Shown: positions 6,903-8,014 of the stretch, one piece after another
Layout of the letters: every line of letters begins with the position of its first letter
Numbering within the stretch: the first letter of the stretch is position 1
Source of the DNA: an uncultured archaeon
GTDB lineage: Archaea > Asgardarchaeota > Lokiarchaeia > Sigyniarchaeales > SOKP01
Direction: 5' to 3'
Assembly: GCA_964525635.1 (NCBI GenBank)
Contig: CAZGJX010000006.1
Location: 1 to 64,000, forward strand
DNA length: 64,000 bases
Program-made: the position numbers and the translations under genes
Notes under the pieces: generated by a model
Told to the model about the DNA's origin: nothing
The model's database searches: none
What the model saw: only the letters and a program-made list of their open reading frames with translations

Positions 6903-7324
6903 TATAAATATTTTTTTTATTAAATAATAAATATAATTGTAGAGAAGTTCAAATATAATATAAGTAAATCGATCATTTATATTTTTGTATTTGATAATCT
7001 TCTGCTTAAATATAGTAATTATTATTGAGATTGATAAAACTCTTATGGGATATGAAATTAATAGAATTAAATTCGATCCCAGATTTACTACAAAAACATC
7101 ATAATTTTGCCTTAAATTTAATTAAAAGTTTAATTTATTTTAACATTATTCTGATATTTTATATTATTTCAACTGTTTGTTGATATTCTATAAAATCTTA
7201 TTCATCTTCCAATTCTCCTCTTTTACTAAAGAATAATTAAAATAATTAATCAAAAATAATGAAAAAATCTTTAATGATGTCTATATTTTCGTTAAATATC
7301 TGAATATAGTGTATGCCATATATT

Positions 7325-8014
7325 ATGAATTATAAAGAAACAGACATTATTAATGTTGTAATCGCAGGAACTGCTGGTCAGGGTGTTATTAGTCTTAAAA
7401 GATTAATTGAATTCGCTGCACAAAAAGCAGGAGTAGAGCGTATCCTTGGAAGTGAACCTTTTGTTTAATTCAAATAAAAGTACTTAATGCATGGACTCGC
7501 TCAGCGTGAAGGTGCTATAACAAGTCATACACGTTATCAAAAGAAAATTTTTGATGATCCCCGTAAGGATTTACAATCTTCACTGATTTGTTATGGTGAT
7601 GCTGACCTCTATATCTGCCTAGAACCTGTAGAGTCCTTAAGAAGAGGGATTTTTGCTTCAAATAAGACTACTTTTGTTTTAAATGACCGTACAATTCCAG
7701 GTGTGATGATTACTGCTGATTTGGAAAAATATCCTTCTTTGGAAAAGATTCAATCCATATTAAAAGAATATTCAGAGGAAGTATATTTTTTGAATGCAAC
7801 TGAATTAGCTCTTAATAATTTTAATCAAAATCAACAGTTAAATATAATAATGCTTGGATTTGCCGTCGCGACAGGGAAATTACCATTTATAAAAATCATC
7901 CATTATGAAGAAGTAATAAATGAGTGGCTTAGAGATCCTGAGAAAAATATAAAAGCATTGCATTTGGGAATAGAAGAAGGTAGAAAAATAATTAACCAAT
8001 ACACACAAAAATAG
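7325..8014 (+). CDS. iorB: Indolepyruvate:ferredoxin oxidoreductase beta subunit, split into exon 1 (7325-7456) and exon 2 (7487-8014); 219 aa if spliced
   Basis: Exon 1 gives MNYKETDIINVVIAGTAGQGVISLKRLIEFAAQKAGVERILGSE (GxxGQG motif). Exon 2 gives MHGLAQREGAITSH...LEPVESLR...NIIMLG. Both are in the same frame, separated by 30 nt with two TAA stops. Confidence 0.88.
7457..7486 (+). other. Candidate 30-nt archaeal BHB (tRNA-endonuclease-type) intron in mRNA
   Basis: Central helix AGUG(7451-54)/UACU(7481-84); 3-nt bulges AAC(7455-57) and UAA(7485-87); 9-bp intron hairpin 7458-66/7472-80. Cutting after the second nt of each bulge removes exactly 7457-7486. Confidence 0.85.

Follow-up and report, generated by a model that had tools for sequence, protein, structure and literature searches.

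A candidate EndA/RtcB-type mini-intron interrupting an iorB-like gene in a Lokiarchaeial Asgard archaeon

The window analysed here is a stretch of 64,000 nucleotides (nt) from an uncultured Lokiarchaeial archaeon (contig CAZGJX010000006.1 of assembly GCA_964525635.1, positions 1 to 64,000), and its subject is an IorB-family gene interrupted by a 30-nt insert at 7457-7486. The host genome measures 4.45 Mb, has a G+C content of 26.8% and is 100% complete by markers. Two open reading frames (ORFs) of the same frame meet at the insert: 7313-7468, which ends ...ILGSE and then PFV before its stop, and 7487-8014, which starts MHGLAQREG. In-frame TAA codons stand at 7466 and 7475, and with TAA read as a residue the locus yields one product of 233 aa, in which codons 52 and 55 are the stops. 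Exon 1 of the candidate gene (MNYKETD...ILGSE) occupies 7325..7456 on the + strand, and its tblastn matches to 62 orthologs stop exactly at Glu48 (GAA, 7454-7456). Exon 2 (7487..8014, + strand) runs to QYTQK and a stop codon and carries the POR/IorB domain PF01558 (E = 2e-14); the 233-aa product matches the whole Pfam profile, at 54.5 bits against a cut-off of 27.4. Once the insert is removed, comparison with orthologs shows the motif G-S-E-x-H-G-x-A-Q-R restored.

A first-pass annotation of this DNA, made by a model from the letters alone, had named the gene iorB and read the insert as an intron. The family assignment holds, with PF01558 matched and IorB models taking the top 11 places among NCBIfam matches. 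The exact name is less secure: the best of these models scores 96 bits, below the equivalog cut-offs of 205-238, as measured on a read-through protein from which the 10-residue insert had not been removed, and iorA is not linked to the gene in this genus. We therefore refer to it as iorB-like. Translation probably begins at the ATG of 7325 and not at 7313, because orthologs and called exon-1 peptides begin MN(Y/F)KETD. A possible TATA box, TTAAATAT (7292..7299, + strand), was read from the sequence. It lies some 26 nt upstream of a start near 7322-7325 that is putatively leaderless or has a short leader; a promoter of its own would be needed by this gene because it is separated from iorA in this genus. 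It had also been anticipated that gene callers would fragment the gene, and public gene calls do give two proteins, one per exon, with lengths of 51 aa and 175 aa. An unrelated 392-aa protein shares the shorter peptide's 90% cluster; this is a clustering artefact, and the protein was disregarded. Rfam and ARAGORN gave no matches on the window.

The insert sits within a bulge-helix-bulge (BHB) fold. For positions 7430-7508, RNAfold returns the canonical hBHBh' motif as both the minimum free energy (MFE) and the centroid structure, at -20.5 kcal/mol (z = -2.56; 3 of 200 shuffles fold as well). On the + strand, the exon-exon outer helix h pairs 7436..7450 with 7488..7502, and the central 4-bp helix H pairs the exon strand AGUG (7451..7454) with the intron strand UACU (7481..7484). 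The intron hairpin h' (7458..7480) has a 9-bp stem, 7458-66/7472-80, and the loop AAUUC at 7467-71. The two 3-nt bulges are AAC at 7455..7457 and UAA at 7485..7487, and the third base of the latter, A7487, is the first base of exon 2. Both strands of H also hold in a register check across orthologs and show covariation; the 3' strand of h is likewise backed by covariation and pairing counts. The insert coordinates and all base pairs given by the first-pass annotation proved correct, and the MFE and centroid structures are the fold that it had drawn.

In a BHB, the tRNA splicing endonuclease EndA makes one cut in each 3-nt bulge, between the second and third bases. The cuts predicted for this fold, 7456/7457 and 7486/7487, are the exact ends of the insert as set by 42 orthologs that lack it. 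BHB folds in strict register are rare in this genome, at about 1.5e-4 of the (position, length) combinations (179,198 matches over 8.9 Mb x 135 lengths), so that finding one at insert ends defined by homology is not a matter of chance.

Our search took in 40 relatives first and the family's full set of 135 genomes after that; with both exons placed by tblastn, it recovered 63 single-copy orthologs within the same order. The relatives with orthologs are metagenome-assembled genomes (MAGs) of Promethearchaeota/Promethearchaeia, a Lokiarchaeia-type group of Asgard archaea. MAGs from this single GTDB family have been deposited under many phylum names, namely Promethearchaeota and Thor-, Hod-, Odin- and Hermodarchaeota. 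An insert lies exactly at the Glu|Met codon boundary in 21 of the 63 orthologs, here called intron-bearing (30 nt in nine, 31 nt in 12), and is absent from the other 42, among them all five from the order's other families. Although a 31-nt insert puts the frame out, no stop is left in any of the 63 coding sequences once the inserts are removed, and the 21 copies hold no further frameshifts. Pairwise dN/dS among the intron-bearing genes is 0.06-0.19 (median 0.086), indistinguishable from that of the intronless genes, and pN is 0.145 in the former versus 0.168 in the latter. Further lesions, or a dN/dS near 1, had been named in advance as signs against splicing; neither was seen, dN/dS being about 0.1.

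The intron-bearing set comprises 21 genomes of nine genera, and five GTDB genera contain members both with and without the intron. Intron sequences of different genera are recognisably homologous. On the best gene tree the presence of the intron needs 12 changes, of which at least two are forced by supported branches, in a tree that is poorly resolved (26 of 60 forks open) and too weak for counting losses or gains. From these sequences, the most economical history would place a single origin inside one family of Lokiarchaeial archaea (Promethearchaeia) and have the intron removed precisely, or swapped through recombination, on repeated later occasions, the repetition being suggested by the polymorphism within five genera. 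Among public proteins, no full-length one is ≥97% identical to any intron-bearing ortholog; the closest, at 90-93%, are encoded by intronless metagenome DNA.

The fold is maintained across these orthologs. In a fixed BHB register, the central helix has all four pairs in 17 of the 21 genes, three of four in two and two of four in two. In an alignment of 18 sequences, 92.1% of cells are paired, versus 20-46% when the partners are slid by 1-3 columns. Double, compensatory changes occur at 11 pairs, and none of 500 shuffles attains the observed covariation score. Within the intron stem h', eight of the nine pairs show compensatory changes. In one pair of helix H (columns 21-51), an intron base faces the wobble position of the synonymous Ser codons AGU/AGC; the pair is U-A in 12 sequences, C-G in six and unpaired in none. 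The third base of the 3' bulge is A in 21/21 intron-bearing genes. In the 31-nt inserts the extra base forms a bulge inside the intron stem, and the cut sites of these forms would thus be unchanged. The alignment of orthologs that the first-pass annotation had proposed as a check has in this way yielded presence and absence at an identical site (21 versus 42) together with covariation.

The exons, too, differ according to whether the intron is present. Of the 15 positions of the exon-exon helix, 10-13 (mean 12.1) are paired in the intron-bearing genes versus 5-12 (mean 8.3) in the intronless ones. The junction codons are GGR-AGY-GAA|ATG-CAY-GG in all 21 intron-bearing genes, whereas intronless genes vary freely at the junction: the Ser position can read TCN, GCA or ACA, the Glu codon can be GAG, and Q, H, D or S can stand where Met does. 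A close match to an intron-bearing ortholog was seen for two intronless metagenome genes, with nucleotide identities of 94% (L132:601-1248 against L043) and 91% (L133:218-868 against L045). In both pairs the differences cluster at -27 to -12 from the junction, which is the 5' strand of the outer helix, and in the second pair the cluster reaches +118. This clustering suggests either a recombination tract that swapped the junction with or without its intron, or a helix constraint that was released; on either explanation, it would tie the exon sequence to the intron.

The genome encodes the proteins expected of such a splicing system, as the first-pass reading of the locus had supposed. Two tRNA-intron-endonuclease genes (PF01974) are found, on contigs C18 and C105. 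The product of the first has the catalytic Tyr/His/Lys and that of the second is without them, which we take to mark them as the alpha and beta subunits of EndA, respectively. A single RtcB gene (PF01139) lies on contig C119. EndA of Asgard and TACK archaea has an (alpha-beta)2 architecture and a broad substrate range (PMC5829648), and the predicted EndA pair of this genome matches that architecture.

Together these data make it very probable that the pre-mRNA of an IorB-type gene contains an EndA/RtcB-type BHB intron, formed by the 30 nt at 7457-7486, and the sequence-level checks of the splicing first proposed for this locus were all favourable. In the proposed mechanism, the 15-position exon-exon helix would clamp both exons while exon positions 7451-54 pair with intron positions 7481-84. 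A heterotetrameric (alpha-beta)2 EndA, assembled from the C18 and C105 products, would cut after 7456 and after 7486, and RtcB from C119 would ligate the exons into ...GGAAGUGAA|AUGCAUGGA..., restoring G-S-E-M-H-G-L-A-Q-R. The predicted spliced junction is GGAAGTGAA|ATGCATGGA, the predicted peptide across it is ILGSEMHGLAQR, and the released 30-nt intron would probably be circular. Without splicing, only a fragment of 47-51 aa would be made, perhaps along with one of 175 aa.

Several points weigh against this explanation. The motif is relaxed in 4 of the 21 orthologs, which have one or two mismatches in the central helix. The cut positions are predicted from the canonical rule and from internal consistency, and cleavage, ligation and the spliced mRNA are all deduced. 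A search of sequencing runs listed no RNA run with this locus, and contigs from runs judged to be DNA showed no joints there. Finally, ATG is the first codon of exon 2 in every one of the 21 intron-bearing genes, an arrangement that also allows the independent translation of a split gene.

The surroundings of the gene bear on its function. In this genome and genus the iorB-like gene and its iorA partner lie on different contigs; in most relatives, intron-bearing ones included, the ortholog is directly downstream of iorA. That iorA of the relatives is 70-79% identical to the iorA at C149:5832-7676 (minus strand) of this genome, which in this genus has no other iorB adjoining it. A second iorAB-like pair is present on contig C17. 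The interrupted gene is therefore likely the sole partner of one IorA, a role that fits the purifying selection acting on it.

The same genome holds further inserts of this kind. A genome scan that used no homology and looked for a BHB fold within a split ORF brought up three. In a MoCF_biosynth/CinA-like gene, a 30-nt BHB insert (C26:35462-35491, - strand) falls inside SSGGL|GPTFDD, with PF00994 positions 2-66 matched by exon 1 and 67-143 by exon 2. A Gtr1/RagA-like small GTPase has a 31-nt insert in phase 1 (C62:3369-3399, + strand) just before its DFGGQ switch-II, and the profile is matched over 1-41 by exon 1 and 54-211 by exon 2. In a thioredoxin gene a 32-nt insert, also in phase 1 (C1:45712-45743, - strand), directly follows the WCGPC active site; here exon 1 matches profile positions 17-33 and exon 2 positions 36-98. 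The Pfam profiles thus continue across the predicted junctions in all three genes. Two of the three inserts split a codon, so that the downstream exon cannot be translated alone. In addition, an RNase HII gene (C4:29572-30216, minus strand) matches its full Pfam profile and contains one in-frame TGA, which is consistent with a mini-intron there.

A genome-wide scan had been among the checks first suggested. The scan was noisy: it delivered the MoCF, Rag-like GTPase and thioredoxin inserts, but its global counts of BHB folds in split ORFs were no higher than those at decoy cut offsets, because adjacent genes on the same strand mimic split ORFs. Filtering by coding potential left a modest excess for lengths of 28-32 nt (29 versus about 15.5). 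The scan therefore serves to nominate candidates and not as a census. Two cases were rejected as false positives, both with a BHB-like fold in a short spacer between genes and both passing the naive split-ORF test: a VapB antitoxin and its neighbouring gene (C139:700-1300), and the small and large subunits of a [NiFe]-hydrogenase (C149:3600-5800). Any census must exclude gene boundaries of this kind.

We consider it rather likely that the iorB insert belongs to a genome-wide population of BHB mini-introns of about 30 nt, in metabolic, translational, GTPase and redox genes, across the whole Lokiarchaeial family. In that case, splicing of mRNA by EndA and RtcB, independent of any spliceosome, would be a routine need of these Asgard archaea; their introns would be lost, gained or recombinationally exchanged at a measurable rate, with exons co-evolving with introns; and the closest relatives of eukaryotes would possess a prokaryotic 'genes-in-pieces' system.

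Of the other explanations for the iorB insert, the one that survives best, though improbable, is that it is a short intergenic spacer in a split gene, exon 1 (47-51 aa) and exon 2 (175 aa) being translated separately to give a two-piece IorB. This would account for the ATG that opens exon 2 in 21/21 insert-bearing genes, for the in-frame stop in every 30-nt insert and for the fact that gene callers already call both pieces, and it predicts purifying selection on both pieces equally well. It gives no reason, however, for the precise fit to BHB geometry, for compensatory changes in the helices H, h and h' or for the exon constraint linked to the intron. Homology breaks off and resumes without gain or loss of a residue, at a point within the motif that the family conserves most strongly, and in the intronless genes, too, Met is the residue seen most often there. 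A Shine-Dalgarno-like 4-mer precedes the ATG in none of the 21 inserts, a weak argument since only 28% of gene starts have one compared with 17% of controls; Shine-Dalgarno use is weak genome-wide, and the test therefore has little power. The sister inserts support a general capacity for mRNA splicing and weaken the split-gene explanation for iorB, since those that split codons cannot be spacers.

Much less probable is that the insert inactivated a decaying copy of iorB. In-frame stops, the frameshifts of the 31-nt forms and the separation from iorA in this genus would all suit a pseudogene, but the insert is kept in all 21 genomes with no other lesion, dN/dS is the same as in intronless orthologs, and the gene is single-copy in each genome and probably the only available partner of the C149-type iorA; we regard the pseudogene explanation as effectively refuted. 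Translational recoding is just as hard to credit. Here ribosomes would hop over the 30-31 nt, in the manner of phage T4 gene 60, or read through them, and a hairpin does follow the last codon of exon 1, with a stop soon after the take-off position in some copies. The take-off and landing codons are nevertheless unmatched (GAA before the insert, against UUA, UAA, UUG, UCU, AAC and others before the ATG), read-through is incompatible with 31-nt inserts or double stops, and the features that are conserved, two 3-nt bulges and a 4-bp helix, are determinants of EndA and not bypass signals.

An assembly or sequencing artefact, or insertion of a small mobile element without a role at the RNA level, is already refuted: although the genome is a MAG and the insert is short, AT-rich and palindrome-like, homologous inserts occupy the same site in 20 other genomes from different studies, no target-site duplication is present, and a contig from an independent metagenome run, covering 7287-7673 with zero differences, carries the insert, which thus is not peculiar to a single assembly. 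The first-pass annotation's concern over an assembly artefact is answered by the presence of the insert in the DNA of another sample.

Returning to the BHB intron as the favoured explanation, full-text literature searches, some of them naming Asgard or Lokiarchaeota, found no paper on BHB introns in Asgard protein-coding genes, and published introns of archaeal protein genes are essentially limited to crenarchaeal cbf5. What is new here is the Asgard lineage, the metabolic host gene, the natural variation (30 or 31 nt, presence or absence within genera) and the sister introns in the genome. With 21 natural variants, frameshifting ones among them, mRNA splicing by EndA and RtcB would be no crenarchaeal curiosity and would reach the archaeal lineage closest to eukaryotes. 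Because standard gene callers split such genes or label them pseudogenes, metabolic reconstructions of Asgard archaea and estimates of their completeness would undercount functional genes. Intron loss and gain can also be followed at this locus as a natural experiment, as can the constraint that an intron's splicing structure places on exon codons.

Eukaryotes splice HAC1/XBP1 mRNA unconventionally in the cytoplasm, using Ire1 and a tRNA ligase, which in metazoa is RtcB. The splicing proposed for iorB would resemble this system in that a short intron leaves the mRNA without a spliceosome, at paired stem-loop or bulge sites, in joining by a tRNA ligase and in the resulting change of frame. The eukaryotic system differs in that its nuclease is Ire1 and not the tRNA-splicing endonuclease and in that it is regulated by stress, and no homology of the introns is implied. 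EndA depletion in Haloferax volcanii revealed a BHB motif in the 5' region of an mRNA, in a study whose title and abstract stress rRNA and tRNA processing (PMC7714728). As is predicted for the iorB insert, that motif appears to be an EndA substrate within an mRNA, but it apparently interrupts no coding frame that needs splicing for its restoration.

The hBHBh' architecture of the iorB insert is identical to that of the BHB introns of archaeal tRNA and rRNA, and so are the predicted cuts, which fall in two 3-nt bulges, and the predicted enzymes, EndA and RtcB. Those tRNA and rRNA introns were reportedly surveyed by Marck and Grosjean 2003. Here, unlike there, the host RNA is an mRNA, and the exon half of the motif must also meet codon constraints, which leads to a fixed choice of synonymous codons. 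The tRNA genes of Asgard archaea are heavily interrupted, as set out in a preprint that covers tRNA introns only (bioRxiv 10.64898/2026.10.13.758758).

The mechanism that we infer for the iorB intron is that of the BHB intron in the cbf5 pre-mRNA. The crenarchaeal intron is said to have been described by Watanabe et al. 2002 and Yoshinari et al. 2006. It is removed by a hetero-oligomeric tRNA-splicing endonuclease and a ligase, and machinery of the same type is presumed to act on iorB. Like the intron in the pre-mRNA of the aCBF5 pseudouridine synthase of Crenarchaeota (Yokobori et al. 2009, PMC2738675), the iorB insert is short, contains no ORF, lies inside a protein-coding gene and adopts a BHB fold; both are also patchy among relatives, a distribution read as gain followed by secondary precise loss. 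The two differ in that splicing of cbf5 was shown experimentally whereas that of iorB is predicted, and in their hosts, an RNA-modification enzyme of Thermoproteota in the one case and a metabolic oxidoreductase subunit of Asgard archaea (Promethearchaeia) in the other. Unlike the cbf5 intron, moreover, the iorB insert is one of several mini-introns within a single genome.
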